This document shows, in pieces, positions 12,002 through 52,897 of a stretch of 64,000 nucleotides of DNA (positions within the stretch are counted from its first letter, which is position 1; each line of letters starts with the position of its first letter). The notes under the pieces are model-generated. The model did no database searches. It was not told the DNA's origin and saw only the letters and a list, made by a program, of their open reading frames with translations. The stretch is from an uncultured Actinomycetota bacterium (GTDB lineage: Bacteria; Actinomycetota; Actinomycetes; Mycobacteriales; CADCTP01), in contig OY970235.1 of NCBI GenBank assembly GCA_963714145.1, positions 7,962,499 through 8,026,498 on the forward strand, written 5' to 3'. Both the position numbers and the translations under genes were made by a program.

Positions 12002-12086
12002 CCGGACCGACCCGCCGGCGCGTCGGCTGGGCCCACACCCAGCCGGCGCGCCGGCTCCACCAGGGAGCACTCATGCCGGTCCCGAG

Positions 12087-27333: not shown

Positions 27334-29085
27334 TCAGGCCCGGCGTGGGGTGATGACCCGGGTGTGGATGGCCGCGCCGGTGGTCGCGCTCCTGGCCACG
27401 CTGGTCGCGGTGTGGATCGCGGTCACCTCCAGCCTGCCGTCGGCGACGATGTCCAGGACGCCGAGCACCAGCGGTCCGCCGGTGGGGCCGGCGACCTCGC
27501 GCAGGCTGCAGCAGTCGTCCATGGTCGCCTCACCGGGCAGCAGGACGATCTCGGCGAAGCGCCGGGCCGGCTGCCGGTCCGGTTCGCGGCCGATCACCCG
27601 GCCCTGCCGCACGAGCGTGGCGAACCGCTTCTCGATCCGGATCGGGCAGCTGGTCGGGTTGTAGATCGTGACGGCGGTGGCGTACCGGCCGTCCACGACG
27701 GTGCGGCAGTCGTCGGCGGGGTCGGCCGGGTCCGGACCCTCGACGCCGCAGACCATCTCCACCGAGTGGTGCCAGCGGCAGGCCGGCACGGTCACGGTGA
27801 CCGGCTTGCTGGCCACCACGACGCCGTCGGCCACGACGTCGAGGGCGCCGGTGAACACCTGGTCCTTGTCGCCGCAGTCGCGGTCGCCGGTCCACACCAC
27901 CTCGAACGGCAGCACGTGCTGGACGTTGCCGGGCAGCGGGCCGTAGCCGCCGGCCGGGGTGATCCCGGTGACGAACCCGGTGATCTGGCCGGTGGGGGCG
28001 AGCGTGACCGAACCGGTCTCGCCGACCGCCGCGGCGATCAGCTTCGCCAGGGTGTCCACGATCGCGCCGGCGTCCACACCGGTGGTGTGCGAGCCGCCGG
28101 TGGCCGCCGCGATCTCGGTCGCCTGGCCCGGGGTGCCGCCGGCGGCGCACGGGTAGTCGATGCCGGCCGGGTTGTCGTCCAGGCCGGCCGGCAACCCGGT
28201 GGTGGTGCTGACCGCGATCACGGTGTGGCCGGCCAGGTCGGTGGTGACGCTGGCCTGGGTGAGATCCGCCGGCAGGCCGGTGAGCGAGGCGCAGACCGGG
28301 TCGTGGCCGGGGGCGTCGCCGAACCAGACGATGATCCGCTTGCTGCCCGGGCGCCACCCGGTGGCCGGGTCGGTCGCGATCCGGTGCAGCGCGTAGAGCT
28401 GGCCCTCCGGGGCGTCGCCGCCCTCGCCGTTGGTCGTCCAGGCGGCCACCGCGGCGAGCGCCGCGGGGACGGTCGACGCGCTGGGCGAGAGCTGGTGCGC
28501 GAAGGCGTACGAGCTGCTGCCGGGCACCGGGAAGTCGCGGTAGTTGCCCACCCCCCAGGCCACGTCCACGCCGGGGAAGCTGCCGATGATCGTGGTGCTG
28601 CCGGCCTTCACCGCGTCGATCACCGGCGCCATGCTGCCGGTCGTGTCGGCCAGCAGGTAGACGTCCGCCTTCGGGTTCGCGCCGGACTTGGGGATCGTGA
28701 CGACGACCGTCTCGTGCTCGGTCGCGCACTTGGGCAGCGTCCAGTTGTTGGAGATCGGGTTGATCCGCACCGGGTCGCGGCGGACGACGACCGGGCCGGT
28801 CGGCGGGTGCACGTCCGGGATGAAGAGCGGCCGGCCGGCGCGTGCCTCCAGTTCGTCCCGGCGGTGCACCGCGGCGGCGGCGTCGACGGCCAGCGCGGCG
28901 GTCCGGTTCCGCTTGCCGCGGATCGCCGCGGTCACCAGCCGGACGGTCTCGCCGGTCGGCATCCGGTCGGACACGTCGGCGACGATCTCGATGTCGGTGC
29001 TGCGCAGTACCTCGGCGAGCGCCGCCCGGACCGCCCCGGTCGGGTCCGGTGCCGCGGCGCCCGGCGTGTTGTCGGTTGAGCTCAT
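27334..29085 (-). CDS. von Willebrand factor A (vWA) domain protein with Ig-like and Cys-rich C-terminal domains
   Basis: MIDAS-like DTTGSM, ...WFGDAPGHDP. C-terminal ACRWHHSVEMVCG...DDCRTVVDGRYATAVTIYNPTSCPIRIEK...DDCCSLREV. No signal peptide. Confidence 0.8.
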   Translation of the reverse strand: MSSTDNTPGAAAPDPTGAVRAALAEVLRSTDIEIVADVSDRMPTGETVRLVTAAIRGKRNRTAALAVDAAAAVHRRDELEARAGRPLFIPDVHPPTGPVVVRRDPVRINPISNNWTLPKCATEHETVVVTIPKSGANPKADVYLLADTTGSMAPVIDAVKAGSTTIIGSFPGVDVAWGVGNYRDFPVPGSSSYAFAHQLSPSASTVPAALAAVAAWTTNGEGGDAPEGQLYALHRIATDPATGWRPGSKRIIVWFGDAPGHDPVCASLTGLPADLTQASVTTDLAGHTVIAVSTTTGLPAGLDDNPAGIDYPCAAGGTPGQATEIAAATGGSHTTGVDAGAIVDTLAKLIAAAVGETGSVTLAPTGQITGFVTGITPAGGYGPLPGNVQHVLPFEVVWTGDRDCGDKDQVFTGALDVVADGVVVASKPVTVTVPACRWHHSVEMVCGVEGPDPADPADDCRTVVDGRYATAVTIYNPTSCPIRIEKRFATLVRQGRVIGREPDRQPARRFAEIVLLPGEATMDDCCSLREVAGPTGGPLVLGVLDIVADGRLEVTAIHTATSVARSATTGAAIHTRVITPRRA

Positions 29086-31570: not shown

Positions 31571-32263
31571 CTAGATCAGGGACAGGACGTGGTCGAGGCC
31601 GCGCGGGCCGGTCTTCGCCGGCCGGGGGAGCAGGAAGACGCACATCCCGGCGGTGACCGCGCCGGAGTCGGTGAGCGGGTTGTCGCCGACCATGAGGGTG
31701 CGCTCCGGGTTCACCTGGAGCTCGTCGCAGGCGGTGAGGAACGACTTGACGGCGGGCTTGCAGACGCCGGTCTCGCAGGACATCACGACGGCGTCCAGGA
31801 ACGGCGAGATGCCCAGCTGGTCCAGTGCCGGGCGCAGATCGAAGCCGGTGTCGCTGAGCACGCCGATCCGCAGGCCCTGGTCGCGGACCGCGCGCAGCAC
31901 CGGCAGCGTGTCCGGGAAGGCTTCCCAGGAGTCGGCGCTGACGGTGAGCGCGTACAGCTCGTCGCTCAGCCCGGGCACCAGCCGCTCGGAGCCGGCCGCC
32001 CGGTAGAGCGCGGTCCACACCTCGTGGTGCGTGGTGCTGGACAGGTCGCGGCCCTTGGCCAGCTCCTCGGCGGTGCTGCTGCGATCCAGCACCCGCCGCC
32101 AGACCTGGCCGACCTCCTCCGGGTCGAGCTCGTCGGCGCCGAGCGTGGCCGCGGCCTTGTGCAGCAGCTTCTCGCCGCTGCCGGCCAGCCGGATCAGCGT
32201 GTCACCGGCGTCGAACAGGACCGCCTCGAACTGGCTCAGACTCACGTCCCCGTCTCTCCTCAT
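31571..32263 (-). CDS. HAD-superfamily hydrolase (phosphatase-like)
   Basis: Motif I VLFDAGDTL, the CKP lysine motif and MVGDNPLTD. The ATG overlaps the upstream stop (ATGA). Confidence 0.8.
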   Translation of the reverse strand: MRRDGDVSLSQFEAVLFDAGDTLIRLAGSGEKLLHKAAATLGADELDPEEVGQVWRRVLDRSSTAEELAKGRDLSSTTHHEVWTALYRAAGSERLVPGLSDELYALTVSADSWEAFPDTLPVLRAVRDQGLRIGVLSDTGFDLRPALDQLGISPFLDAVVMSCETGVCKPAVKSFLTACDELQVNPERTLMVGDNPLTDSGAVTAGMCVFLLPRPAKTGPRGLDHVLSLI

Positions 32264-33099
32264 ACTCCGGCGCCAAACTCCACGAACAGGCCCTGACCAG
32301 GGTCGTACCGGCGGCCGGGAAGCGCCGCGGTCCGGGTCGCCGGCGAGCGGCGCCCGCCGCCGTTTGGGCGGTTCCGGACGACCGTGTGCGCCGCCACCGC
32401 CGGGCGGTGGTTGACGACCGTGGACACCGCCGCGACCGGGCGGTGGTACCAGAGCCAGCCCACGTCCCGGCCGAACGACTCGACCAGCAGGGCCAGTGCC
32501 ACCGCCACCACCCCGATCGACAGCGGCCCGGGCAGCACGCCCGCCGCCGCGACCACCAGCGTGACTCCCTGCGTAGCCGCGACCACCTTCCGCCAGAAGC
32601 GCGCCGGCAACGACCCGCGCATCCAGGGCAGTACCCAGGCGGCGGCGACGTACGCATACCGCATCGCACCGATCGCGAGCACCCACCCACCCAGCGCGCG
32701 CGTGGCGTAACCGCTGAGCACCAGGATGAGGAAGGCGTCCACCTCCATGTCGAAGCGGGCGCCGAACGCGGAGACGGTGTTGGTGCGCCGGGCGACCTTG
32801 CCGTCCACCCCGTCCAGCAGCAGGGCCACGGCGCCGAGGGCGACCAGGACGGCCACCGGCACCGGCCGCCAGAACGAGTCGACCGTGAGTGCCGTCACAC
32901 CGCCGGCGAGCGTCGCCCGGGTGAGCGTGACCCGGTTGGCCGGCCCGAGCGTGGTCTTGCCCGATCGGTGCAGGCCCCAGGTGACCGCCGCGCACAGGGC
33001 CAGGCCGTACGCGATGCCGGCCAGCCAGCCCGCAGCACCGAGCCCGACGACCCGCGCTAGGGCCGTGAGCAGGACAATCTGGCCTGCCAGCCCGATCAT
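32260..33099 (-). CDS. CDP-alcohol phosphatidyltransferase family membrane protein
   Basis: DGVDGKVARRTNTVSAFGARFDMEVDAF matches D-G-x2-A-R-x8-G-x3-D-x3-D. Polytopic. Confidence 0.85.
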   Translation of the reverse strand: MIGLAGQIVLLTALARVVGLGAAGWLAGIAYGLALCAAVTWGLHRSGKTTLGPANRVTLTRATLAGGVTALTVDSFWRPVPVAVLVALGAVALLLDGVDGKVARRTNTVSAFGARFDMEVDAFLILVLSGYATRALGGWVLAIGAMRYAYVAAAWVLPWMRGSLPARFWRKVVAATQGVTLVVAAAGVLPGPLSIGVVAVALALLVESFGRDVGWLWYHRPVAAVSTVVNHRPAVAAHTVVRNRPNGGGRRSPATRTAALPGRRYDPGQGLFVEFGAGV

Positions 33100-33202
33100 C
33101 GGGCCACTTCCAACCGTGCGCACCGTGCCTCCGTGGACTATGGGGGTCCGTGGTCGGGTAACACGGGCCGGGCGCCGGTTCGGTTCAGAGGGGGGGACGT
33201 CG

Positions 33203-34180
33203 ATGACGGCCGAGGCCAGTGCGTTCTGGCTGCGTGAGCCCGGTGTGGGCGAGATCCGGCCGGCCACCGCGGCGGCTCCGGGCGACGGCGAGGTCCGGGT
33301 CCGGACCCGCTATTCCGGGATCAGCCGGGGCACCGAGACGCTGGTCTTCACCGGCGGCGTGCCGGCCAGCCAGTACGCCGCCATGCGCGCGCCGTTCCAG
33401 CAGGGCGACTTTCCCGGGCCGGTCAAGTACGGCTACCTCAACGTCGGCGTGGTCGAGGCGGGCCCACCCGAACTGCTGGACCGGACCGTCTTCTGCCTCT
33501 ACCCGCACCAGACCTGCTACACGGTTCCCGCCGCTGCCGTCGTTCCGGTGCCGGCCGGGGTGCCGGCGGCCCGGGCCGTGCTGGCCGGGACGGTCGAGAC
33601 CGCGGTGAACGCACTCTGGGACGCCGCGCCGCTGGTCGGCGACCGGGTCACGGTGGTCGGCGCCGGGATGGTCGGCTGCTGCGTCGCGGCGCTGCTGGCC
33701 CGGTTCCCCGGCGTCCGGGTCCAGTTGGTCGACACGGACCCGGGCCGGGCCGCGGTCGCCGCCGCGCTGGGCGTCGAGTTCGTGCCGCCGGCGGACGCGG
33801 CCGGCGGCCGGGACCTGGTGGTGCACGCCAGCGCGACGGCCGCCGGGCTGCGCCGGTCGCTGGAGCTGCTCGGGCCCGAGGGCACGGTGATCGAACTGTC
33901 CTGGTACGGGGACCGCGAGGTCAGCCTGGCGCTGGGCGGCTCGTTCCACTCCGGCCGGCTGACGATCCGGGCCAGCCAGGTGGGCATGGTCGCGCCGGCC
34001 CGGCGGGCCAGCCGGACCTTCGCCGACCGCCTCGCGCTCGCCCTCGACCTGCTGCACGACCCCGGGTTCGACGCGTTGATCACCGGCGAGTCCCGGTTCG
34101 AGGAGCTACCGGACGTGCTCGGCCGGCTGGCCGCGGGCACCCTTCCGGCGTTGTGCCACCTCATCACCTACAGGGAGTGA
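33203..34180 (+). CDS. MDR-family (zinc-type/BchC-like) dehydrogenase
   Basis: GISRGTETLV..., VVGAGMVGCC Rossmann motif. ATG at 33203. Confidence 0.8.
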   Translation: MTAEASAFWLREPGVGEIRPATAAAPGDGEVRVRTRYSGISRGTETLVFTGGVPASQYAAMRAPFQQGDFPGPVKYGYLNVGVVEAGPPELLDRTVFCLYPHQTCYTVPAAAVVPVPAGVPAARAVLAGTVETAVNALWDAAPLVGDRVTVVGAGMVGCCVAALLARFPGVRVQLVDTDPGRAAVAAALGVEFVPPADAAGGRDLVVHASATAAGLRRSLELLGPEGTVIELSWYGDREVSLALGGSFHSGRLTIRASQVGMVAPARRASRTFADRLALALDLLHDPGFDALITGESRFEELPDVLGRLAAGTLPALCHLITYRE

Positions 34181-34186
34181 GAACAA

Positions 34187-34585
34187 GTGTTCAGCGTGAC
34201 TGTCCGTGATCACATGATGATCGCCCACAGCTTCCGCGGCGAGGTCTTCGGCCCCGCCCAGCGCCTGCACGGCGCGACCTTCGTGGTCGACGCCACCTTC
34301 CGGCGCCCCGACCTGGACGCCGACGGCATCGTCGTCGACATCGGCGCCGCCGCCCAGCAGTTGAACGCCGTGGTCGGTGAGCTCAGCTACCGCAACCTGG
34401 ACGACGAGCCCGCCTTCGCCGGCGTCAACACGTCCACCGAACTGCTCGCGCGGGTGATCGCCGACCGCCTCGCCGACCGCATCGACGCCGGTGCCCTCGG
34501 CGACGGCGCCCGCGGCCTGACCGGCATCACCGTCACCCTGCACGAGTCGCACATCGCCTGGGCCAGCTACGAGCGGACCCGGTAG
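34187..34585 (+). CDS. 6-pyruvoyl-tetrahydropterin synthase (PTPS/QueD, COG0720) family protein, divergent
   Basis: MIAHSF...[13 protein letters not shown]...NLDD... T-fold pattern. The usual HGH reads HGA here. Confidence 0.8.
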
Positions 34586-35668
34586 GTGCCGCACCCAGCG
34601 GTGCACGTCGTACTGCCGAACGAGATCGACGATCCGGCGGCGCCGAGCGGGGGCAATGCGTACGACCGGCAGGTGTTGCGCGGGCTGGCCGGGCTGGGCT
34701 GGTCGGTGCGGGAGCACGCCGTCCCGGGCGGCTGGCCGACCCCGCTGCCGGCCGAGCGGGCCACCCTCGCCCGGGTGCTCGCGGCGCTGCCGGACGGTGC
34801 GGTCGTGCTGGTCGACGGGCTGGTCGGCTCGGCGGTGCCGGACGTCCTGCTGCCGGCGGCGCACCGGCTGCGGTTGGTCGTGCTGGTGCACATGCCGCTC
34901 GGCGACGAGTCCGAGCGGGCCGCGCTGGCCGGCGCCAGCGCGGTGATCACGACGAGCGACTGGACCCGGACCCGGCTGCTCGAGCTGTACCGGTTGCCGG
35001 CCGACCGGGTGCACGCCGCGACCCCCGGCGTGCGGCCGGCCGACCTGGCGACCGGGTCGGACGCCGGCTCGGAGCTGCTCTGCGTCGCGGCGGTCAGCCC
35101 GCACAAGGGGCACGACCTGCTCACCGGGGCACTGGCGACGATCACCGACCTGCCCTGGCGGTGCACGTACGTCGGCTCGCTGACCCGGGACCCCGGCTTC
35201 GTCGCCCGGCTCCGCGAGCAGGCCCCCGACCGGATCCACTTCGCCGGCCCGCGGGTCGGGGCCGACCTCGACGCCGCGTACGCCGCGGCCGACCTGCTCG
35301 TGCTGGCATCGCGCGGGGAGACGTACGGCATGGTGGTGGTCGAGGCGCTGGCCCGCGGGATCCCGGTGCTGGCCACGGAGGTGGGCGGGCTGCCCGAGGC
35401 GCTGGGCCGCGCTCCGGACGGCAGCCGGCCCGGCCTGCTGGTGCCGCCGGACGATCCGCCCGCGCTGGCCGGAGCGCTCCGGCACTGGCTGACCGACCCG
35501 GCCCTGCGGCACCGGCTCCGGGCCGCCGCCCGCGCCCGCCGGCCAGCCCTGGCCGGCTGGGCCAGCACCGCCGAGCGCGTGTCGAACGTCCTGGCCGCGG
35601 TGGCCGCGGACCAGCCCGCCGCCGCGCCCCGCAGAGCGCGGAGCGCAGCGAACCGGAGGGACAAATGA
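34586..35668 (+). CDS. GT4-family glycosyltransferase
   Basis: SGGNAYDR N-terminal motif; E-x7-E region ETYGMVVVEALARGIPVLATEVGGLPE. GTG start directly after the upstream TAG. Confidence 0.85.
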   Translation: MPHPAVHVVLPNEIDDPAAPSGGNAYDRQVLRGLAGLGWSVREHAVPGGWPTPLPAERATLARVLAALPDGAVVLVDGLVGSAVPDVLLPAAHRLRLVVLVHMPLGDESERAALAGASAVITTSDWTRTRLLELYRLPADRVHAATPGVRPADLATGSDAGSELLCVAAVSPHKGHDLLTGALATITDLPWRCTYVGSLTRDPGFVARLREQAPDRIHFAGPRVGADLDAAYAAADLLVLASRGETYGMVVVEALARGIPVLATEVGGLPEALGRAPDGSRPGLLVPPDDPPALAGALRHWLTDPALRHRLRAAARARRPALAGWASTAERVSNVLAAVAADQPAAAPRRARSAANRRDK

Positions 35669-36492
35669 GCGGAGTGCGGCTGGGGGATCCGGTGGACTTC
35701 GCGGAGTGGCTCGCGCTGCGGGAGCCCGCCGACGCGGCCGCCCGCGCGCCGGACCTGGTCGAGCGGGTCCGCCGGCAGCTGGCCGGCCGGCCGCGGTTGA
35801 TCATCCACGACCTGGGCAGCGGCACCGGGTCGATGGGCCGCTGGCTGGCTCCGCGGTTGCCCGGCCCGCAGCACTGGATCATGTACGACCGGGACGCCGA
35901 CCTGCTGGACCGGGCCGCGGCGAACATGGTCACCAGCGCTGCGGACGGCGCTCCGGTCACCGTCGAGACCCGGCGCCGCGACATCACCCGGCTGCCGCCG
36001 GGCGAGCTCGCCGAGGCTGATCTGATCACCGCGTCCGCGCTGCTGGACATGTTCACCGCGGCCGAGATCGAGCGCGTCGTCGCAGCGTGCGCCGGGCGCC
36101 CCACGTTCCTGACGCTCTCGGTGATCGGCCAGGTGCGGCTCACCCCGGCCGACCCGCTCGACGCGGAGGTCGCCGCGGCGTTCAACGCCCACCAGCGCCG
36201 GACCACCGGCGACCGCAGCCTGCTCGGGCCGGACGCGGTCGACGCGGCCATCGAGGCGTTCGGCCGGCGCGGCGTCGGCACGCTGGTCCGGCCCAGCCCG
36301 TGGCGGCTGGGCGCGGATGCGGCCGGGCTGACCGCCGAGTGGCTGCGCGGCTGGCTGGGCGCGGCCTGCGAGCAGCGGCCGGAGTTGGCCGGCCCGGCGG
36401 CGGCGTACGCCGACCGGCGGCTGGCGGAGGCCGCGGCGGGCCGGCTCGGCGTGCTCGTCGGGCACAAGGACCTGCTCGCGGGGTGTGAATGA
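35665..36492 (+). CDS. Class I SAM-dependent methyltransferase
   Basis: IIHDLGSGTGSMGRWL motif. ATGA overlap with the upstream stop. Confidence 0.8.
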   Translation: MSGVRLGDPVDFAEWLALREPADAAARAPDLVERVRRQLAGRPRLIIHDLGSGTGSMGRWLAPRLPGPQHWIMYDRDADLLDRAAANMVTSAADGAPVTVETRRRDITRLPPGELAEADLITASALLDMFTAAEIERVVAACAGRPTFLTLSVIGQVRLTPADPLDAEVAAAFNAHQRRTTGDRSLLGPDAVDAAIEAFGRRGVGTLVRPSPWRLGADAAGLTAEWLRGWLGAACEQRPELAGPAAAYADRRLAEAAAGRLGVLVGHKDLLAGCE

Positions 36493-36549
36493 ACCGGTCA
36501 GCCGGCTGGGCCGTGTCTCTCCCGCAGTAGTACTTCTAGGGAGGGCTCG

Positions 36550-37728
36550 TTGCACAGCGCATCGACACTGGCACCGCGGGTGATGAAGACGGCCGAGTCG
36601 GCTGCCCCCGCGGCACCGCCGCGCCGGGTTCAACCCCGCCCGGCACCCGCCCGCCCGACCCAGGCTCCCGCCTCGGTCCAGGCCCCGGCTCCGGTCCAGG
36701 CTCCGGCCTCGATCCCGGCTCCGGTCGGGTCCGGGCCGGCGCCAGTCGAGCCGGCCGTGCGCGGGGCTGTGGCCAGGGCGGTCAAGGCCTGGCTACGGCC
36801 GGTCGCCGGGCTGGGCATCCTGACCATCCTGCTGTGGCGGGTCGGCACCGGCCCGTTCGTCGACGGGCTGCGCCTGATCAACGGCTGGGCGGTCGTGGCG
36901 GCGGTCGGCATCGGCGCGCTGACCACGGTGTGCAGTGCCTGGCGGTGGAGCCTGGTCGCCGGTGGCCTCGGGCTGCGGCTGCCGCTGTCGACCGCCGTGG
37001 CCGACTACTACCGATCGGTATTCCTGAATTCGACGCTGCCCGGTGGCGTGCTCGGCGACGTGCACCGCGCGGTCAGCCACGGTCGGGACGCCGGCGATGT
37101 CCGTCGCGGCATCCGCGCGGTGGTCTGGGAGCGGACCGCCGGCCAGTTCGTCCAGCTGATCATGGCGATGATCGTGCTGTCGGTGTTTCCCTCGCCGGTA
37201 CAGCGGTATATGCCTGCGGTGATTATCGTCGTGGTGGCCGTTGGGCTGGGGGTGGCGGTGCTGACCCGGGCGCTGCCGGGCGCCGGGCTGTCCCGCTGGG
37301 CCCGGGCGCGCTGGGCGCAGCCGCTGCGCACCGCGAAGGCCGACATCCGGTACGGGCTGCTCGCCCGCGGCAACTGGCACCGCATCCTGCTCGCCTCCGC
37401 CGTGGCGGTGGCCGGCCATCTTGCGACGTTCCTGGTCGCGGCCAGGGTCGTCGGCTCGGTCGCGGCCCTGTCCAGCCTGATCCCGCTGACCCTGCTGGCG
37501 CTGCTGGCGATGGGCGTGCCGGCGAACGTGGGTGGGTTCGGGCCGCGCGAGGGCGTGGCCGCCTGGGCGTTCGGGGCCGCCGGGCTGACCGCCGCGCAGG
37601 GCGTCACCACCGCGGTGGTGTACGGGGCGCTGGTGCTCGTCGCGAGCCTGCCCGGTGCGGCCGTCCTGGTCGCGCGGCGGCTGCGGGTGCCGGCCGCCGT
37701 CTCGCCGGAAGGTGCCATCGTTGGCTGA
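36550..37728 (+). CDS. LPG-synthase-TM/UPF0104 (flippase-like) polytopic membrane protein
   Basis: ..CSAWRWSLVAGGLGLRL....YYRSVFLNSTLPGGVLGDVHR.. pattern. The start is uncertain (TTG 36550 or ATG 36583). Confidence 0.75.
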   Translation: MHSASTLAPRVMKTAESAAPAAPPRRVQPRPAPARPTQAPASVQAPAPVQAPASIPAPVGSGPAPVEPAVRGAVARAVKAWLRPVAGLGILTILLWRVGTGPFVDGLRLINGWAVVAAVGIGALTTVCSAWRWSLVAGGLGLRLPLSTAVADYYRSVFLNSTLPGGVLGDVHRAVSHGRDAGDVRRGIRAVVWERTAGQFVQLIMAMIVLSVFPSPVQRYMPAVIIVVVAVGLGVAVLTRALPGAGLSRWARARWAQPLRTAKADIRYGLLARGNWHRILLASAVAVAGHLATFLVAARVVGSVAALSSLIPLTLLALLAMGVPANVGGFGPREGVAAWAFGAAGLTAAQGVTTAVVYGALVLVASLPGAAVLVARRLRVPAAVSPEGAIVG

Positions 37729-38371
37729 GCTGCCGACCGCGACGGTCCGCACCCAGGTGACGGTGCCGCTGCGATTACCAGATGGGTACACCACCACCGC
37801 GAACGTGTTCACCTTCCACGGGCTGGTAGACGGCCAGGAACACGTCGCGCTCGGCCTCGGCGACTGGACCGGAGCGCTCGACCGGCACGCTGCCGGTGGT
37901 CCCGCACCGCTGGTCCGCCCGCACAGCGAGTGCCTGACCGGGGACGTGTTCGGCAGCCAGCGCTGCGACTGCGGCCCGCAACTGCACGAGGCGGTCAAGC
38001 GCATCGCCGCGACCGGTGGCTTCCTGCTGTACCTGCGGCAGGAGGGCCGCGGCATCGGTCTGTACGCCAAGCTCGACGCGTACGCGCTGCAGGACGCCGG
38101 CCTGGACACCTACGAGGCGAACCTCGCCCTCGGGCACGGCGAGGACGAGCGCGACTACACTGCCGCCGCCCAGATGCTGACCGCGCTGGGCGTCGAGCGG
38201 GTGGCTCTGCTGAGTAACAACCCGGACAAGGCCGACCAGCTCAACCGGCTCGGCGTACCGGTGGTGGAACGGGTGCCGACCGGTGTGTTCCTCGGCCCGG
38301 CCAATGCCGCCTATCTGGCGGCGAAGGCCAGCCGCGCCGCCCGCACGGCAGACCTTCCGTTCGTCAGCTGA
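37721..38371 (+). CDS. ribA: GTP cyclohydrolase II
   Basis: RPHSECLTGDVFGSQRCDCG (Zn Cys triad), LYLRQEGRGIGL, DAYALQD, LLSNNP. Probable TTG start at 37721 (GGAAGG RBS) overlapping the upstream stop. It contains an in-frame TTA codon at 37775-37777. Confidence 0.9.
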   Translation: MAELPTATVRTQVTVPLRLPDGYTTTANVFTFHGLVDGQEHVALGLGDWTGALDRHAAGGPAPLVRPHSECLTGDVFGSQRCDCGPQLHEAVKRIAATGGFLLYLRQEGRGIGLYAKLDAYALQDAGLDTYEANLALGHGEDERDYTAAAQMLTALGVERVALLSNNPDKADQLNRLGVPVVERVPTGVFLGPANAAYLAAKASRAARTADLPFVS

Positions 38372-38403
38372 TCCACCCCACTTCCCGCAGAAAGGCCGTC
38401 GGG

Positions 38404-40470
38404 TTGTCTATCTTCACGCGCTCGGGCCGGACGCCGACCCAGGATCGGCCGACCGCCGAGGGCGACCCGGCCGGCGACACCGCACCTGCTGGGGTCGACG
38501 CCACCGGTGCCGATACTGCCGACGGCGACGTCACGTCCGCTGCTGTCGCGGGTGACCGTCGCGACGACATCGATGACGGGTCCGAGCCGGCGCCCGCCGA
38601 GGCCGTCCCCGCCAGTGCCGCTGCCGCCCCGGACACCGTGGCTGCCCCGGAGGTCGCGGCTGTCCCGGACACCGCTGCCGCCCCGGACGTCGTGGCTGCC
38701 TCGGACGCCGGGACAGCCTCGGACACCGTTGCCGCCCCGGACACCGTGGCAGCTCCGGACGCTGAGGCCGGCGGCGAGGGTGAGGCCGGCGGCGACGCTG
38801 CTGCTGGCCTGGACACCGCGGCCGTCCCGGACGCCGTCCCGGCTGCCGAACGGCCCAGCCGGCGGCGGCTGATCATGGCCCGGGTCCGGACCACGCTGGC
38901 CGCCGTGCTCGTACTCGGCGCTCTGCTCCTGCCGGACGACTACGGCCACCTCACGCCGCGGGTGTTCCTGCGGATCCCGGCGGAGGCGCTGCTGGGGGTC
39001 GTCGCCGTGCTCCTGCTGCCCCGGAAGCTGCGGCGGATCGCGGCCGGGATCGGTGGCGCCGGCCTGGGCGCGCTGACCGTGCTGAAGATCGTGGACATCG
39101 GCTTCTACGCGACCCTGGACCGGCAGTTCGACCTGGTGCTCGACTGGCCGCTGCTGGGTAGCGCGGCCGGGGTGGTCCGGGATTCGACCGGCCAGGTCGG
39201 CGCGGTCGGCGCGGTGATCGGCGCGGTGCTGCTGGTCGTCGCGGTGCTGTTCTTCATGACCCGCTCGGCGCTGCGGCTGGCCGACACCGTGTCCCGGCAC
39301 CGGCGCAACTCGATCCGCGGTGGCGCGGTGGCCGCAGTCGCCTGGGTGATGTGCACCGCGCTCGGCGCCCAGCTCGTCCCGGGGCTGCCGATCGCCGCCC
39401 GCAGCGACGCCGCCCTCATCTACCACCGTTCGGCCCAGGTCCGCGAGGGACTGCACGACGCGCGGGAGTTCGCCGCCCAGGCCTCGGTCGACCCGTTCGG
39501 GGACACCCCGGCCAGCCAGCTACTGACCGGGCTGCGTGGCAAGGATGTCCTGTTCAGCTTCATCGAGAGCTACGGCCGCAGCGCGGTCGAGGACCCGCAG
39601 TTCGCCACCCAGGTGGACGCGATACTCGCCGCCGGGACCAGCAAGCTGAACGCGGCCGGCTTTGCCTCCCGCAGCGGCTGGCTCACCTCGTCCACCGCCG
39701 GCGGCGGCAGTTGGCTGGCCCACTCGACGCTCTTCTCCGGCCTCTGGGTCAACAACCAGAAGCGCTACCGGACGCTGACCTCGGGCGAACGCCGCACCAT
39801 CCCGAGCGCCTTCAACAACGCCGGCTGGCGGACGGTCAGCCTGGAACCGGCCATCGTCAGGGCCTGGCCGGAAGTGAACTTCTACCATTACGACAAGGGC
39901 TACGCGAACCGGGATCTCGGCTACCGTGGCCCGCGTTTCAGCTATTCGCCGATGCCCGACCAGTACACCCTGTCGACTTTCCAGCGGACCGAGCGCGAGC
40001 CCGGTCATGCCCCGCTGTTCGGCGAGGTCACCCTCACCTCCAGCCACAATCCGTGGACGCCGATCCCGAAGATGGTCGACTGGGACGACGTCGGCGACGG
40101 CGGGATCTTCGAAGACCCGGCGAACCAGCAGGGCGGCGCGGTGAGCGACGTCTGGCCGAACCCGGCGAAGGTCCGCGTCGCCTACCGGCAGTCCATCGAG
40201 TACTCGCTCACCGCGCTCATCTCGTACATTCAGAAATACGGTGACAAGAACCTGGTCATCGTGTTCCTGGGTGACCACCAGGCCGCGCCCATCGTCGTCG
40301 GCGCGGGCGCCAGCCGGGATGTTCCGATCACGGTCGTGGCCAAGGATCCGGCCATCCTGGACCGGATCTCCAGTTGGGGCTGGACCCCCGGCCTGCAGCC
40401 GAGCAAGCAGGCCCCGGTCTGGCGCATGGACGCCTTCCGCAACCGCTTCCTGACCGCGTTCGCGCAGTAG
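38404..40470 (+). CDS. Membrane-anchored alkaline-phosphatase-superfamily transferase (LtaS/OpgB/sulfatase-like) with acidic low-complexity N-terminus
   Basis: TM helices followed by FSFIESYGRSA (metal-binding Glu context), SSTAGGGSWLAHSTLFSG and FLGDHQ. The N-terminal ~155 aa is an Asp/Ala/Pro-rich repeat. An alternative start is ATG ~38875. Confidence 0.7.
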   Translation: MSIFTRSGRTPTQDRPTAEGDPAGDTAPAGVDATGADTADGDVTSAAVAGDRRDDIDDGSEPAPAEAVPASAAAAPDTVAAPEVAAVPDTAAAPDVVAASDAGTASDTVAAPDTVAAPDAEAGGEGEAGGDAAAGLDTAAVPDAVPAAERPSRRRLIMARVRTTLAAVLVLGALLLPDDYGHLTPRVFLRIPAEALLGVVAVLLLPRKLRRIAAGIGGAGLGALTVLKIVDIGFYATLDRQFDLVLDWPLLGSAAGVVRDSTGQVGAVGAVIGAVLLVVAVLFFMTRSALRLADTVSRHRRNSIRGGAVAAVAWVMCTALGAQLVPGLPIAARSDAALIYHRSAQVREGLHDAREFAAQASVDPFGDTPASQLLTGLRGKDVLFSFIESYGRSAVEDPQFATQVDAILAAGTSKLNAAGFASRSGWLTSSTAGGGSWLAHSTLFSGLWVNNQKRYRTLTSGERRTIPSAFNNAGWRTVSLEPAIVRAWPEVNFYHYDKGYANRDLGYRGPRFSYSPMPDQYTLSTFQRTEREPGHAPLFGEVTLTSSHNPWTPIPKMVDWDDVGDGGIFEDPANQQGGAVSDVWPNPAKVRVAYRQSIEYSLTALISYIQKYGDKNLVIVFLGDHQAAPIVVGAGASRDVPITVVAKDPAILDRISSWGWTPGLQPSKQAPVWRMDAFRNRFLTAFAQ

Positions 40471-41104: not shown

Positions 41105-42487
41105 TCACCCGGGCTCCGGGTCAGCACCGGTGTAGCTGGCCGGGTCGAGAGCGGCTTGCACGGTTACCGCTTCCGCCGCCCAGAGAAACGCCTCGATAGT
41201 GGCCGGGGAGGCGTGCTGCGTGTCGACGGCGACCTGTATTTCGACGGTGTCCGGGACGTCGTTGATCCGTAGCGAGAACGGTTCGCTGACCGGGTCCACC
41301 GGCACCTGGCACCAGTCCAGCCGGCTGGCCGCCAGCGCGGCCCGGATGCGGTCGGGGGTGGGGGCCGGCCCGCTGACCAGCCGGCTGGCCGGGTCCCTGC
41401 GGTCGTTCACATAGCAGGAGATGTCGAGGTTCTCGCCGCGCTCCCGGCCGAGCCGGGCGACCAGCGCGTCCCGCTGGCTGGGGTCGTAGTAGGCGTTCTT
41501 GTAGGCGCTCAGCGAGGCCTGCCAGGCCCGGGCGACCACCTCGTCGAAGGTGCCGGCGGCGACGTCGATCACGCAGAGGCCGGGCATGCTGACCGCGCTG
41601 GCCGAGTCGGCGAGGCTGGGCCGGAACCGGTTGCTGACGATGAGCTGGGCCACGCTCGGGTTGATGCCGGTGGCCCGGGCCAGCCCGACCGCGAGGGCGG
41701 CCAGCAGTACCGGCGTGGTGTCCACGCCGGCGCGCGCGGCGATGACGCGGGCGGCCAGGTCCATGGCCGGGGAACGGTACTCGGCCTCCTGGAAGCGCGG
41801 CCGGTCGTGGCCGGTCGGGATGGGGAACCGGCGGGCCGGGATGTCACGCAGCAGCCGCTCCCAGTGCCCGAGGCTGGTCGTGCTGCGCCGTTGCCCGGCC
41901 GGGCCGGCCTCCCACCGCGCCTGCTCCAGCGGCGGCAGGCCGCGGACCGGGCCGGTCGGCCGGCCGGTGCTCGAGTCCAGATTGGACAGATCGGCGATCA
42001 GCGCGGCCACCCCGCCGCCGTCGAGGGCCAGATGGCAGTAGGTGGCCACCACGTGGGTGAGGGCGGCGCGGTGCCGGATCACGGCCATCCGCACCGGCCA
42101 CTCGTTCGCATAGTCGAACTCCTTCGCGTGGAAGCGGTTCCACACGGACTGGGCGACCGCCACCGGATCGGCATCGCCGGCATCCACGATCTCCAGCGTG
42201 GCCACGCCCGAGGCCGCCACCGCCTGCCGGACCCGCCCGTCGGCGTCGAACCGCAATCGGGTCCGCAGCGACTGGTGCCGGCTCATGATGAAGCTCAGCA
42301 CCCCTGCCGCCGCGTCCGGCGACATCCCCGCCGGCAGCGGGCTGACCCCGCCCACCGCCAGCGACGACCCCAGCCGCTGGATCATCCCCCACATCTCCCG
42401 CTGCCCCCAGCTCAGCTCACCGACGCCGGAACCCTCGCCCTCGAACGGCACCAGCACCCGATCCGCAACGCCCGCCACCGCGGTCAT
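41105..42487 (-). CDS. Stand-alone condensation (C) domain protein
   Basis: LSWGQREMW, the HHxxxDG-type motif as CHLALDGGG, ~460 aa. Start at ATG 42487. Confidence 0.8.
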   Translation of the reverse strand: MTAVAGVADRVLVPFEGEGSGVGELSWGQREMWGMIQRLGSSLAVGGVSPLPAGMSPDAAAGVLSFIMSRHQSLRTRLRFDADGRVRQAVAASGVATLEIVDAGDADPVAVAQSVWNRFHAKEFDYANEWPVRMAVIRHRAALTHVVATYCHLALDGGGVAALIADLSNLDSSTGRPTGPVRGLPPLEQARWEAGPAGQRRSTTSLGHWERLLRDIPARRFPIPTGHDRPRFQEAEYRSPAMDLAARVIAARAGVDTTPVLLAALAVGLARATGINPSVAQLIVSNRFRPSLADSASAVSMPGLCVIDVAAGTFDEVVARAWQASLSAYKNAYYDPSQRDALVARLGRERGENLDISCYVNDRRDPASRLVSGPAPTPDRIRAALAASRLDWCQVPVDPVSEPFSLRINDVPDTVEIQVAVDTQHASPATIEAFLWAAEAVTVQAALDPASYTGADPEPG

Positions 42488-42677
42488 GGGCCACCCCCTG
42501 AGAATCGGACAACAGTAGGGCATCCAGCACGGACCAGGTGTGTTCGGGAGCTCGGGCCGGCTCCGCTGCACGACCAGGGGGTGGCCGGTGCCCGCGCGGC
42601 TGGTCAGCTGGCGGCGGCGGCGGCGGACCGGCGGCACCGGCGCGGCCGGCGGCCGGGAGCGGGCTAGGGTCGGCGGC

Positions 42678-43772
42678 GTGGACACCTACGCCAGCAGCGG
42701 CGTCGACTACGAAGTGCTGGACCGGACCAAGCGCGCCGCCGGTGCCGCCGCCGCCGCCAGCGCGCACCTGCTCACCGCCCATGGTGGGCGGGAGTTCCCG
42801 GCGTCCCGTGGTCAGTCCGCGTACGTCTTCGAGGTCGGCGGTCAGACGCTGGCGTTCGTGCTGGAATGCCTCGGCACCAAATCGCTGATCGCGCTGGAGT
42901 ACGCCGCCCAGACCGGGGTCAACCGGTGGGCCGACGTGGCCAGGGACACCGTCGCCGCGGTCGTGAACGACCTGGCCAGCGTCGGTGCGCTGCCGCTGGT
43001 GGTGAACGCCTACTTCGCCACCGGCTCGGACGACTGGTTCGCCCTGCCCGGCGCCATGGACGAACTCGTCCGCGGCTGGACCGAGGCCTGCGCCGAATCC
43101 GGCGCCACCTGGGGCGGCGGGGAAACCCCGACGCTGCGCGGCCTGGTCACCGCCGGCGCGATCGAACTGGCCGGCAGCAGCGTCGGCGCCGTCCCCGCCG
43201 GCCGTGCCCCGCTGCTCGGCGACGACCTGCGGGCCGGCGACGAGATCGTGCTGATCGGCAGCAACGGCCTGCACGCCAACGGCGCCAGCCTGGCCCGCAC
43301 CGTCGCCGCCGCGTCCCCGGACGGCTGGGCCACCCTGCTGCCCAGCGGCCGGCGGCTGGGCGACGCGGTGCTCGACCCCACCGTCAACTACGTCCCGCTG
43401 GTCCGCACCCTGCTCGCCGCCGACCTGCCGGTCAGCTACCTGGCCCACATCACCGGCCACGGCTGGCGCAAGATCATGCGCGCCGAGCAGGACCTGCACT
43501 ACGTCATCGACGCCCTGCCCCCCGTCCCCGAGGTGCTGACCGAGCTGGCCGACCGCGCCCCCCTCGCCCCGGACGAGGCCTACGGCACCTTCAACATGGG
43601 CGCCGGCTTCGCCGTCTTCTGCCGTCCCGGCAGCACCGCCGCGGTCCTCGACACCGCCCAGCGCACCGGCTACCAGGCCCACCCCGCCGGCACCGTCCAG
43701 CCCGGCCAGCGCGCCGTCACCATCGCCCCGCTGGGCGTCACCTACCCTGGACACAGCCTCCTGCTGCGCTGA
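42678..43772 (+). CDS. AIR synthase-related (PurM-like) protein
   Basis: YASSGVD, GTKSLIA, NDLASVGA, GGETP, GSNGLHANG, HITGHGWRK. GTG start at 42678. Confidence 0.8.
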   Translation: MDTYASSGVDYEVLDRTKRAAGAAAAASAHLLTAHGGREFPASRGQSAYVFEVGGQTLAFVLECLGTKSLIALEYAAQTGVNRWADVARDTVAAVVNDLASVGALPLVVNAYFATGSDDWFALPGAMDELVRGWTEACAESGATWGGGETPTLRGLVTAGAIELAGSSVGAVPAGRAPLLGDDLRAGDEIVLIGSNGLHANGASLARTVAAASPDGWATLLPSGRRLGDAVLDPTVNYVPLVRTLLAADLPVSYLAHITGHGWRKIMRAEQDLHYVIDALPPVPEVLTELADRAPLAPDEAYGTFNMGAGFAVFCRPGSTAAVLDTAQRTGYQAHPAGTVQPGQRAVTIAPLGVTYPGHSLLLR

Positions 43773-43858: not shown

Positions 43859-43931
43859 GGGGCGTTAGCTCAACTGGCAGAGCAGCGGACTTTTAATCCG
43901 CGGGTTCTGGGTTCGACCCCCAGGCGCCCCA
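43859..43931 (+). tRNA. tRNA-Lys(TTT): tRNA-Lys (anticodon UUU)
   Basis: Manual cloverleaf: acceptor GGGGCGT/GCGCCCC, D arm GCTC/GAGC, anticodon stem GCGGA/TCCGC with loop CTTTTAA, 5-nt variable region, T arm CTGGG-TTCGACC-CCCAG, discriminator A. CCA is not encoded. Confidence 0.95.
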
Positions 43932-48914: not shown

Positions 48915-49006
48915 CCGACCCCCACGGCAGCCGATCGGACCTCCCGCGTCAAGAAGACACCAGGCCGCGCAACCCCGCAGCCCGACGGATCGACCCGGCC
49001 GCGCCC

Positions 49007-52775: not shown

Positions 52776-52897
52776 GTGTCATCCCGGCGACCGGCCTGCG
52801 TGGCAGGAGGAATGGCCTGCCGCGGTGATTCAGCGCGTCGCCGAACGACGTTCACGGCCCGATTCGGGTTGCGGGTGCCATGAGGGAGGGGGGCCGC

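Follow-up and report, generated by a model that had tools for sequence, protein, structure and literature searches.

The window, a stretch of 64,000 nucleotides, has a G+C content of ~74%, and open reading frames were therefore selected using GC3 and codon scoring. Nine tightly packed genes at 31571-40470 lie in two divergent operons. The coordinates and families that an earlier note had assigned to all nine were upheld by Pfam and NCBIfam profiles, codon scoring and structure models. The features are as follows.

31571..32263, minus strand: HAD-IA family phosphatase (PF00702, E 2.5e-20; PF13419), with its start at ATG 32263 or GTG 32245
32260..33099, minus strand: CDP-alcohol phosphatidyltransferase (PF01066, E 1.5e-12), a core gene that points away from the plus-strand operon
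33100..33202, no strand: divergent intergenic region of 103 bp, the presumed promoters of both operons
33203..34180, plus strand: MDR-superfamily NAD(P)-dependent dehydrogenase (weak PF00107; AlphaFold/Foldseek), a core gene
34187..34585, plus strand: T-fold protein of the PTPS-IV subfamily (COG0720; PF01242, E 4.6e-23), a core gene
34586..35668, plus strand: GT4 (GT-B, retaining) glycosyltransferase (PF13692 and PF00534, E 1e-25), a core gene
35665..36492, plus strand: class I SAM-dependent methyltransferase (PF13649, E 1.6e-8), usual but dispensable
36550..37728, plus strand: polytopic membrane protein, LPG_synthase_TM (MprF flippase-domain) family (PF03706, E 2.3e-27), start perhaps at 36757, a core gene
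37655..38371, plus strand: monofunctional GCH II of the canonical Tyr type (PF00925, E 1.8e-56), start perhaps at 37712, a core gene
38404..40470, plus strand: membrane-anchored AlkP-superfamily transferase of LtaS/GacH/EptA type (AlphaFold and Foldseek), a frequent accessory gene

The ATGA overlap noted earlier between the CDP-alcohol transferase and HAD genes is present in the junction sequence. GTG 32245, which has GGAGA ahead of it, is an equally good start for the HAD gene, and the gap between the two genes is no more than 14 nt whichever start is used. On the plus strand the junctions are, in order, 6 nt, 0 nt (the GTG of the GT4 gene directly follows the TAG of the PTPS gene), a 4-nt overlap, and then an overlap or a short gap. 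Sequence scans of the divergent region (33100..33202) gave no match to the sigma-70 consensus and no Rfam riboswitch. The window also holds a lanthipeptide cluster, a terpene synthase, a stand-alone condensation domain and a nicotianamine-synthase-like gene.

We compared the locus with 65 complete loci from other genomes in several actinobacterial orders. The earlier note had taken the genes to form one candidate pathway, and had named a lack of co-conservation beforehand as its refuting test. Co-conservation holds. The core comprises the CDP-alcohol transferase, the non-zinc MDR dehydrogenase, the PTPS-like protein, GT4, the MprF-flippase-like protein and GCH II, each found in 59 to 65 of the 65 loci and in the same order, and recurrence of the gene set beyond what chance would give is confirmed. 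No flanking gene is conserved beside the cluster in any of the 65. Carriers include Micromonospora, Streptomyces, Pseudonocardia, Actinoplanes, Nocardiopsis, Actinomadura, Marmoricola, Amycolatopsis and MAGs of Solirubrobacterales. A relative is encoded by at least 409 GTDB species representatives, and there are at least 8000 matching protein clusters at 90% identity.

On sequence, the locus is the counterpart of the uncharacterised orphan SCO6648-SCO6655 cluster of S. coelicolor. The PTPS-like protein matches PDB 3D7J (S. coelicolor SCO6650) with E 1.9e-67 and ~84% identical residues, counted by eye, and the Streptomyces order of PTPS, GT4, methyltransferase, flippase-like, creatininase and GCH II genes matches the numbering SCO6650 to SCO6655. 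SCO6655 was reportedly characterised in vitro by Spoonamore et al. in 2006, in agreement with a quoted review; we take it to be a formamidopyrimidine-forming paralogue of GCH II. It had been stated that no characterised pathway has this gene set. That was fair, and our literature search found no paper naming the product of the cluster, but the set had not escaped notice, given SCO6648-SCO6655, 3D7J and a published PTPS-IV neighbourhood. The gene set is itself not new.

The GCH II keeps the three zinc cysteines and the tyrosine (LDAYALQD) that had been read from the sequence, and is of canonical Tyr type. It scores 252 bits against the RibA model NF001591 (cut-off 148), and in alignment with E. 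coli RibA (2BZ0) retains C54, C65, C67, Y105, R128 and K154. The GCH II proteins of these clusters split into two deep clades, Tyr-type, as in the window, and Met/Leu/His-type. A creatininase gene neighbours 40/40 of the Met/Leu/His-type loci but 0/24 of the Tyr-type loci, and therefore both routes should deliver the same diaminopyrimidine. A creatininase-family formamidase for exactly this deformylation has been published (PMC9478397). Between the clades GCH II identity is ~45% whereas that of PTPS stays at ~81%, which indicates that the GTP-opening module has been swapped and its output kept. A Rib7-like reductase (RibD_C) accompanies 22 of the 24 Tyr-type clusters, and a representative is nearest to the archaeal Rib7-like protein 5XUX and the diaminopyrimidine reductase 6P8C. 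There is none at our locus or anywhere in the 64-kb window. The chemistry of the sister clusters is defined by two accessory genes that lay outside the view of the earlier note, those of the Rib7-like reductase and of the creatininase-family deformylase.

The PTPS-like protein had been described as divergent, with HGA instead of HGH. The sequence RLHGA is seen, and the motif FGPAQ-x-LHGA is found in 81 of 82 members of the family. Alignment to the PTPSs of rat, human and C. elegans bears out the divergence: Ala takes the place of both the catalytic Cys and the third zinc His, and Ser-Tyr that of the Asp-His pair. These losses rule out an ordinary PTPS or QueD. FGPAQ is the published signature of "PTPS-IV", and a PTPS-IV/GCH II/RibD_C gene neighbourhood was published in 2017. 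Identity of PTPS-IV has a median of 81% in the complete loci and is 76-89% between orders. A single remark citing unpublished work ties PTPS-IV to archaeal F420/riboflavin synthesis (PMC5041015), which favours a cofactor over a lipid.

The dehydrogenase has a weak match to ADH_zinc_N (PF00107; E 3.4e-5, under the Pfam cut-off), and its top NCBIfam match, BchC, falls far under its cut-off. Its AlphaFold model (pLDDT 65) retrieves generic MDR structures by Foldseek with E 1e-15. The sequences GISRGTE and GYL occupy the positions where horse liver ADH has GICRSD and GHE, and the protein appears to lack catalytic-zinc ligands. It is present in 65/65 complete loci (median identity 74%), always adjoins PTPS-IV, and with PTPS-IV makes up the two best-conserved proteins of the cluster.

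GT4 is present in 64 of the 65 loci. Its PDB relatives are MshA, PimB', PimA, BshA, an SPS-like protein and a tetrahydrobiopterin glucosyltransferase, with inositol phosphate, phosphatidylinositol and tetrahydrobiopterin as substrates. The methyltransferase, for which we found no sequence relative in the PDB, is usual but dispensable (60/65); in all six loci that lack it, the LtaS-like gene is adjacent. SCO6652 and SCO6655, which we equate with the methyltransferase and GCH II, have been reported to be up late in S. coelicolor growth.

The CDP-alcohol transferase has several hydrophobic segments and carries the full motif DGVDGKVAR-x8-G-x3-D-x3-D; the form D..DG..AR-x8-G...D...D is present in 60/60 members of the family. 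The gene is found in 59 of the 65 loci, with a median identity of 59%. Its best matches, like those of GT4, include inositol-phosphate and phosphatidylinositol enzymes. The cluster contains no cytidylyltransferase, and the CDP donor is therefore assumed to be CDP-diacylglycerol. Every NCBIfam HAD-IA match of the HAD protein is under the equivalog cut-off. A homologue lies beside the cluster solely in L001, from the same organism, and L005, and in 0/65 complete loci of other genomes. The pairing of transferase and phosphatase, proposed earlier as a standard route, is therefore a lineage-specific addition and not part of the conserved core. In the flippase-like protein the PF03706 match spans residues 85-369; there are many hydrophobic segments, no synthase domain, and an N-terminal Pro/Ala-rich stretch that is uncertain. 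This gene is present in 62 of the 65 loci.

The last gene gave no sequence match in Pfam, NCBIfam or the PDB, this copy being too diverged for PF00884. Its homologues are annotated as sulfatase, AlkP-family or MdoB-like proteins. The AlphaFold model of residues 195-688 (pLDDT 82) is nearest by Foldseek to LtaP/LtaS, GacH, MCR-1/EptC and PbgA, and the fold thus agrees with the LtaS-like character that had been proposed. The catalytic domain is preceded by about five hydrophobic segments, and these by an N-terminal stretch of ~150 aa that is acidic and of low complexity. ESYG, GGGSW and GDHQ are conserved, the E, S/T, D and H positions are kept, and the C/S-x-P-x-R sulfatase motif is absent. Of the 65 loci, 18 have an LtaS-like gene beside the cluster. 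Its placement takes at least three forms (following the CDP-alcohol transferase, following the GCH II or flippase-like gene, or divergent), and its linkage to the cluster has outlasted several rearrangements. The new observations are thus the two GCH II clades distinguished by the creatininase neighbour, the lineage-specific HAD, the missing Rib7-like reductase and the LtaS/GacH/EptA fold of the last gene.

Our tentative reading is that a dedicated actinomycete pathway diverts GTP into a membrane-associated product. A head group derived from GTP, then glycosylated and methylated, would be attached to a phospholipid and flipped, with transfer to the outside as a possible last step. We infer the lipid head group, the flipping and the outside transfer from family membership and linkage. 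The first step is well supported: Tyr-type GCH II converts GTP into 2,5-diamino-6-ribosylamino-4(3H)-pyrimidinone 5'-phosphate (DARoPP). In the other type of cluster the Met/Leu/His GCH II should halt at the formyl intermediate, and the adjoining creatininase-family deformylase would finish the reaction. In most Tyr-type clusters, but not that of the window, the Rib7-like reductase would then yield the ribityl form. PTPS-IV and the non-zinc MDR dehydrogenase may next remodel the side chain or close a pterin-like ring. The 2-amino group would be kept, and there is no deaminase in the cluster. In Chlamydia, RibA plus TrpF provide a precedent for turning the GCH II product into a pterin (PMC4161248). 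GT4 would attach a sugar and the methyltransferase would methylate. By the logic of PGP/PIP synthases, the CDP-alcohol transferase would join a phosphatidyl donor and the head group, a polyol or its phosphate. In the lineage of the window HAD would strip the leftover phosphate, the MprF-flippase-like protein would bring the lipid to the outer leaflet, and the LtaS-like enzyme may hand the phospho-head group to an external acceptor. Counting against this model are the presence of HAD in 0/65 loci, the adjacency of the LtaS-like gene in only 18/65, and the absence from the window of the reductase found in 22/24 Tyr-type siblings. The same operon could also make another product, served by the membrane genes.

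A less probable reading, though one with a real claim, is a soluble product, either a glycoside of a pterin or pyrimidine or else a cofactor. GCH II, PTPS-IV, the dehydrogenase, GT4 and the methyltransferase would build a small pteridine-like molecule, glycosylated and methylated, that would resemble the biopterin glucoside or cyanopterin of cyanobacteria or be the precursor of a cofactor. The membrane proteins would do no more than export it or anchor the enzymes. The succession of cyclohydrolase, PTPS-like protein, reductase and GT4 follows the enzyme logic of a pteridine-glycoside route, with the tetrahydrobiopterin glucosyltransferase among the GT4 relatives. Moreover, PTPS-IV has been tied in print both to archaeal F420/riboflavin (as unpublished work) and to RibD_C neighbourhoods, and its extreme conservation (median 81%) is more like that of a cofactor enzyme than of an envelope decoration. 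Yet the CDP-alcohol transferase (59/65) and flippase-like protein (62/65) are conserved like the soluble enzymes, the catalytic motif of the former is intact in 60/60, and the LtaS-like gene re-associates with the cluster repeatedly. We also know of no exporter role for either membrane family, which counts against a soluble product.

It is improbable that two unrelated modules merely lie side by side, GCH II with or without creatininase and RibD_C as a spare supply of riboflavin/F420 precursor, and the CDP-alcohol transferase, GT4, flippase-like and LtaS-like proteins as an ordinary glycolipid module of the phosphatidylinositol-mannoside type. GCH II, a creatininase-type deformylase and a Rib7-type reductase do make up exactly the first three archaeal-type riboflavin/F420 steps, and inositol-phosphate and phosphatidylinositol enzymes are among the top GT4 and CDP-alcohol transferase matches. 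However, linkage is kept across orders and rearrangements, the genes overlap or abut in one operon, and the change of GCH II type is a replacement within the cluster rather than a loss. The cluster is without pyrimidine deaminase, lumazine synthase, riboflavin synthase and DHBP synthase, no FMN riboswitch was found, and PTPS-IV and the dehydrogenase, the best-conserved proteins, fit neither module. A specialised-metabolite cluster making a strain-specific antibiotic or toxin from GCH II, as in toxoflavin-type pathways, is very improbable: the window is rich in such genes and SCO6652 and SCO6655 are reported to be up late in growth, but the number of species and protein clusters given above, the 76-89% identity of PTPS-IV between orders, and a near-invariant gene content with no resistance, regulator or transporter genes conserved alongside all oppose it. 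The distribution and conservation are the pattern of a lineage-wide physiological function.

The proposed route to a membrane-associated product can be set beside several known systems. The closest is SCO6648-SCO6655 and the PTPS-IV subfamily, as seen in the 3D7J match and the FGPAQ signature. Streptomyces loci share the CDP-alcohol transferase divergent from the dehydrogenase, PTPS, GT4, methyltransferase, flippase-like ... GCH II series. They differ in that the Tyr-type GCH II of the window is ~45% identical to the Streptomyces Met-type enzyme and has no creatininase gene, while the lineage of the window adds the HAD phosphatase and has the LtaS-like gene directly after GCH II. The archaeal-type ArfA, ArfB and ArfC and the bacterial formamidase BrbF provide the same sequence from GTP to formamidopyrimidine, diaminopyrimidine and ribityl form, and are matched in the sister clusters by the creatininase-family deformylase and Rib7-like reductase. 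In contrast to them the cluster uses the GCH II fold and not GCH III, with no deaminase, lumazine synthase or riboflavin synthase following; the window lacks both the reductase and the deformylase, the latter being superfluous where GCH II is of Tyr type.

Pteridine glycoside pathways (GTP cyclohydrolase I, PTPS, sepiapterin reductase and a BGluT-type GT4) have the same order of enzyme types, and BGluT is detectable as a GT4 relative. However, the cluster would start from the product of GCH II rather than GCH I, its PTPS homologue has neither the zinc site nor the catalytic Cys, Asp and His, its oxidoreductase is MDR rather than SDR, and conserved membrane enzymes are added. The membrane components each resemble a known type. 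As in PGP/PIP synthase plus phosphatase systems, the transferase motif is intact and a soluble phosphatase is translationally coupled in the lineage of the window. The PF03706 protein resembles the MprF flippase domain but has no aminoacyl-PG synthase domain attached, and the last gene, like LtaS/OpgB/GacH/EptA, encodes a protein anchored by transmembrane segments, with the LtaS-type fold and conserved positions E, S/T, D and H. To our knowledge no earlier description puts these parts alongside a head group made from GTP. Finally, the chlamydial RibA plus TrpF bypass reaches dihydroneopterin phosphate via side-chain isomerisation and ring closure. The candidate isomerase of the cluster has a T-fold rather than a TIM barrel and there are no folate genes nearby, but the two are alike in employing the GCH II product as a precursor for something other than riboflavin.

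The genes of the cluster were chosen with a caller combining third-position GC and codon log-odds in DNA of about 74% G+C, and the same calls were recovered on L001, an independent 52-kb metagenome contig of the same organism. Gene calling, profile searches and structural models together bear out the genes described in the earlier note. They form a divergent operon pair, with the following features.

31571-32263, minus: HAD-IA hydrolase (profile match)
32260-33099, minus: CDP-alcohol phosphatidyltransferase (PF01066 match, complete catalytic motif)
103 bp: divergent spacer between the minus and plus operons
33203-34180, plus: MDR-type dehydrogenase (weak Pfam match; MDR fold by AlphaFold and Foldseek)
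34187-34585, plus: PTPS-family protein (PF01242), with RLHGA where HGH is expected
34586-35668, plus: GT4 glycosyltransferase
35665-36492, plus: class I methyltransferase
36550-37728, plus: LPG_synthase_TM protein, transmembrane domain only
37655-38371, plus: monofunctional GTP cyclohydrolase II (GCH II; alignment to E. coli RibA)
38404-40470, plus: LtaS-like protein of 688 aa, without a sequence-family match and assigned by fold

The seven plus-strand genes abut or overlap. The ATGA overlap of the CDP-alcohol transferase and HAD genes is present, with an alternative HAD start at a GTG 18 nt downstream that is preceded by GGAGA. No riboswitch, sigma-70-like promoter or convincing terminator was found for the cluster, and an Rfam scan of the window matched a single tRNA and no FMN riboswitch.

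GTDB species representatives were scanned once, with the PTPS-like protein as query. This confirmed at least 409 relatives, and we analyzed the best 80 loci using tblastn of the window proteins, de novo gene calling and family clustering. Sixty-five of these have flanks of 8 kb or more on each side, and are treated as complete.

Occurrence of the window genes in the 65 complete loci among the best 80 of at least 409 relatives, with median identity
Dehydrogenase: 65/65, 74%
PTPS-like: 65/65, 81%
GT4: 64/65, 57%
Flippase-like (LPG_synthase_TM): 62/65, 54%
Methyltransferase: 60/65, 60%
GCH II: 60/65, 53%
CDP-alcohol transferase: 59/65, 59%
LtaS-like: 18/65, 51%
HAD and all other window neighbors: 0/65

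A lack of co-conservation had been named as the main ground for abandoning the earlier proposal; the core is in fact kept in 59 to 65 of the 65 complete loci, a large share of which come from Streptomyces. On this comparison the cluster is one conserved operon pair. Carriers among the best 80 of at least 409 relatives include Micromonospora, Streptomyces, Pseudonocardia, Actinoplanes, Catellatospora, Nocardiopsis and Actinomadura, together with Amycolatopsis, Sciscionella, Marmoricola, Aeromicrobium, Cellulomonas and Solirubrobacterales MAGs. The nearest named relatives of the window PTPS-like protein among the matches listed are from Micromonosporaceae, e.g. Rugosimonospora at 90%. One locus is degenerate. 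In Streptomyces millisiae (L036, 8000-11300) there is an intact PTPS-like gene, accompanied by part of a dehydrogenase and a weak match to RibD_C, and no GT4, methyltransferase, flippase-like or GCH II genes lie near it; a HAD-like gene is found upstream (6339-7085).

The remainder of the window contains a class I lanthipeptide-type gene set on the plus strand (7478-16923), and a plus-strand ORF of 2810 aa (52880-61312). The product of this ORF carries an eCIS_core domain at its N-terminus, an annexin repeat around residue 1216 and the toxin domain Ntox4 at its C-terminus, and looks like a polymorphic toxin or contractile-injection-system cargo. The individual genes are as follows.

7478-8686, plus: Lant_dehydr_C protein
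9235-11733 (frame open from 8593), plus: LanB-like dehydratase
12087-13352, plus: LanC-like cyclase
13349-15112 and 15109-16923, plus: two ABC transporter genes
21911-24382, minus: CHAT-domain protein
minus: two small ORFs, one sigma-70-like (24990-25544)
25603-27195, minus: Peptidase_S8 protein
27334-29085: 583-aa protein, no family match
41105-42487, minus: stand-alone condensation-domain protein, divergent from the AIRS/AIRS_C gene
42588-43772, plus: AIRS/AIRS_C (PurM/SelD/HypE-like) protein
43859-43931: tRNA
46829-47710: nicotianamine-synthase-like protein
47679-50648, minus: 989-aa amidase and amidohydrolase fusion
50824-51786, minus: family-2 terpene synthase

The condensation-domain, AIRS and tRNA genes are not conserved beside the cluster in the other loci compared.

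The PTPS-like protein matches the T-fold family PF01242 with E = 4.6e-23 (cut-off 22.4 bits). The divergent HGA noticed in place of HGH is present in the window protein as RLHGA. Alignment with 1B66, 3I2B and 2G64 places Ala at the catalytic Cys and at the last zinc His (HGH to HGA), and Ser-Tyr at the Asp-His pair. With the catalytic Cys, the Asp-His and the third zinc His all lost, we rejected a functional PTPS or QueD enzyme of classes PTPS-I, -II or -III; the NCBIfam QueD model requires 89 bits, and the protein reaches 35. The protein has a 12-residue signature stretch that includes FGPAQ, and FGPAQ-x-LHGA is found in 81 of 82 family members. Replacement of CxxxHGH, CxxxxxHGH or ExxHGH by FGPAQ is the signature of PTPS-IV, in whose neighborhoods PF00925 (GCH II) and PF01872 (RibD_C) have been found (PMC5445326); the first of these is in the window operon and the second is not in the window. 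By this signature the protein is a PTPS-IV member of COG0720. Given that the PTPS catalytic residues and the last zinc His are replaced, PTPS-IV must do something else. Involvement in archaeal F420 synthesis has been stated, citing unpublished work (PMC5041015).

In the window GCH II the three zinc cysteines are all retained, as are Tyr105, Arg128 and Lys154 (E. coli RibA numbering, by alignment), and the protein scores 252 bits against NF001591 (cut-off 148). It is thus by sequence a canonical RibA-type GTP cyclohydrolase II, in agreement with the earlier recognition of its zinc cysteines and Tyr. The cluster GCH II proteins (L002-L081, the best 80 of at least 409) form two deep clades, with Tyr or non-Tyr at the switch position, that share about 45% identity and are no closer to one another than either is to E. 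coli RibA. A creatininase-family gene is present at all 40 non-Tyr loci (Met 34, Leu 2, His 4) and at none of the 24 Tyr-type loci among these 80, a correlation that may reflect few evolutionary events, since the clades are ~45% identical. The His-type occurs in Pseudonocardia, Actinomadura, Nocardiopsis and Amycolatopsis within the same 80, where the gene is sometimes upstream of the cluster; we know of no characterized GCH II variants with His or Leu at the switch position. RibD_C follows a different distribution, at 22/24 Tyr-type and 10/40 non-Tyr loci (best 80 of at least 409), and the only Tyr-type loci without it among those compared are the window and L001. Both accessory families match their profiles strongly (creatininase PF02633, E = 8e-63; RibD_C PF01872, E = 8e-46), and neither is found anywhere in the 64-kb window. 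The RibD_C representative is closest to the archaeal Rib7-like 5XUX and the diaminopyrimidine-nucleotide reductase 6P8C.

A creatininase-family enzyme deformylates exactly the formamidopyrimidine intermediate in Sinorhizobium and Brucella (BrbF; PMC9478397), and the archaeal formamidopyrimidine deformylase ArfB belongs to the same family. PTPS-IV identity is about 81% although the neighboring GCH II clades share only ~45%. This suggests that the GTP-opening module has been exchanged inside an otherwise fixed cluster. A Tyr-type GCH II on its own and a non-Tyr GCH II working with a creatininase-type deformylase can apparently stand in for each other, and the pattern suggests that both cluster types should deliver 2,5-diamino-6-ribosylamino-pyrimidinone phosphate. 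No deaminase is present in any locus compared (best 80 of at least 409), and the 2-amino group is therefore likely to be retained. A riboflavin operon was rejected, as the cluster genes and conserved neighbors include no pyrimidine deaminase and no DHBP, lumazine or riboflavin synthase, and there is no FMN riboswitch.

The remaining enzymes of the plus operon were examined by sequence and fold. The AlphaFold model of the dehydrogenase matches many MDR proteins (Foldseek E = 1e-15), all generic and none indicating specificity, and VVGAGMVG is found at the Rossmann NAD(P) site. In horse liver ADH the catalytic zinc ligands are Cys46, His67 and Cys174. GISRGTE and GYL are invariant within the dehydrogenase family, and presumably occupy the places of GICRSD and GHE, with Ser and Tyr for the Cys and His zinc ligands. 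No PDB sequence relative or informative NCBIfam match was found for the methyltransferase.

The CDP-alcohol transferase is a polytopic membrane protein (PF01066) with the D..DG..AR-x8-G...D...D motif intact. All NCBIfam equivalog models are far below their cut-offs, and since its PDB and NCBIfam matches are weak and mixed no acceptor can be assigned. The flippase-like protein matches PF03706, the MprF transmembrane flippase domain, with E = 2.3e-27. However, its 392 aa comprise the transmembrane domain only, lacking the aminoacyl-PG synthase domain, and we therefore rejected MprF and describe it as flippase-like.

The last gene, first recognized as LtaS/OpgB-like, has no match among the Pfam, NCBIfam and PDB sequence families, and its homologs are labeled sulfatase, AlkP or MdoB-like. 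Its AlphaFold model (residues 195-688, pLDDT 82) is closest to LtaP/LtaS, GacH, MCR-1/EptC and PbgA. The top Foldseek matches (4UOP, 4UOR, 2W8D, 2W5R, 6DGM and 9NWW) have probability 1.0 and E from 1e-10 to 1e-6, with TM scores of only 0.4-0.5 for a query that includes the transmembrane region. The fold agrees with the earlier assignment, and on the model the catalytic domain is an AlkP-superfamily fold closest to the LtaS/OpgB/GacH/EptA phospho-transferases. About five hydrophobic segments precede this domain. ESYG, GGGSW and GDHQ are conserved in the family, and sequence comparison gives E194, S242, D430 and H431 as invariant, together with T234 and S235. A type I sulfatase was rejected because C/S-x-P-x-R is absent from the window protein and from 21 of 23 family members. 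The gene begins (38404-38860) with ~150 acidic, quasi-repetitive residues rich in Ala, Pro and Asp (AAPDTVAAPE and similar) that are absent from most homologs (520-630 aa).

The position of the LtaS-like gene varies. It follows the CDP-alcohol transferase in Micromonospora, follows GCH II or the flippase-like gene in the window, Catellatospora and Pseudonocardia sp. N23, and is divergent upstream in one Streptomyces. Retention of linkage through such rearrangement argues for a function shared with the cluster. Homologs are also found elsewhere in Streptomyces genomes. The methyltransferase gene is absent from six of the best 80 of at least 409 loci (L024, L035, L038, L052, L054 and L077), and the LtaS-like gene adjoins the cluster in all six.

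The lipid model of the earlier note, in which a GTP-derived, glycosylated and methylated head group is placed on a phospholipid, flipped and possibly transferred outside, is reasonable but unproven, and we hold it tentatively as a real possibility. PTPS-IV and the dehydrogenase would remodel the side chain, be it ribosyl or ribityl, or cyclize it, a step with a precedent in Chlamydia, where RibA and TrpF lead to dihydroneopterin phosphate (PMC4161248). GT4 and the methyltransferase would next decorate the intermediate, and the CDP-alcohol transferase would join it to phosphatidyl, as PGP and PIP synthases do with polyol phosphates. In the window lineage the HAD enzyme would then remove phosphate. 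The flippase-like protein would expose the lipid, and the LtaS-like enzyme may transfer the phospho-head group to an acceptor outside the cell. A more specific proposal is somewhat doubtful: that an undescribed phospholipid is made across many lineages of actinomycetes, such as Streptomyces, Micromonospora and Pseudonocardia, with a GTP-derived diaminopyrimidine or pterin glycoside as its head group. It would be displayed on the outer leaflet and, in carriers of the LtaS-like enzyme, grafted onto a wall or membrane polymer, and zinc-less PTPS-IV would act on the GCH II product in a reaction new for the T-fold.

The relatives of GT4 include MshA, PimA/PimB', BshA and BGluT, acting on inositol phosphate, phosphatidylinositol, malate and tetrahydrobiopterin respectively; these fit a polyol, lipid or pterin acceptor and make no choice among them. 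A soluble pteridine-like glycoside or cofactor as the product is unlikely; a pterin acceptor for GT4 would be compatible with it, and the conserved set also includes the CDP-alcohol transferase and flippase-like membrane proteins. Two unrelated modules that happen to be adjacent are quite improbable. A specialized-metabolite cluster is least probable of all; the genes are carried by at least 409 species representatives, and the principal antibiotic-producing genera are among the carriers.

Were the lipid reading correct, the cluster would provide a new actinomycete envelope component of a class built from riboflavin-type chemistry. It would also give the first riboflavin intermediate a new destination, and would show which reaction PTPS-IV proteins carry out. 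The apparent interchangeability of the GCH II entry modules holds whether or not that reading is true, and reduces the reactions to be sought biochemically to those acting on the diaminopyrimidine or its ribityl form.

Two of the cluster proteins were reportedly studied about twenty years ago in S. coelicolor. Spoonamore et al. are said to have reported in 2006 that SCO6655 converts GTP to a 5-formylamino pyrimidine, with Met in place of Tyr as the cause, and in 2008 that SCO6650 has neither zinc nor PTPS activity. According to a 2026 review, S. coelicolor has three copies of GCH II, one of which differs in function. A full-text literature search found no paper assigning a product or phenotype to the cluster, and yielded the PTPS-IV motif and neighborhood, the BrbF formamidase, the Chlamydia RibA/TrpF papers and two transcriptome tables. 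In these tables SCO6655 and SCO6652 are up in stationary or late mycelium, which may point to a role late in growth or in development; by its number, we infer SCO6652 to be the methyltransferase. The window PTPS-like protein matches 3D7J, the crystal structure of the "uncharacterized protein SCO6650", over its whole length (E = 1.9e-67; ~84% identical, counted by eye). The Streptomyces order of PTPS, GT4, methyltransferase, flippase-like, creatininase and GCH II fits the locus-tag span SCO6650-SCO6655, and from this numbering we infer a gene-by-gene equivalence. Together with the PTPS-IV signature and the published GCH II/RibD_C neighborhood (PMC5445326), the 3D7J match means that the gene set is not a new combination. 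The comparison suggests that the reported "new function" of SCO6655 is undone by its neighbor, so that the pathway would receive one and the same diaminopyrimidine in both cluster types. By its sequences the window cluster is a further example of the known orphan SCO6648-SCO6655 type, in a Tyr-type form: that type has Met at the switch position and an adjacent creatininase gene, whereas the window cluster has Tyr and no creatininase.
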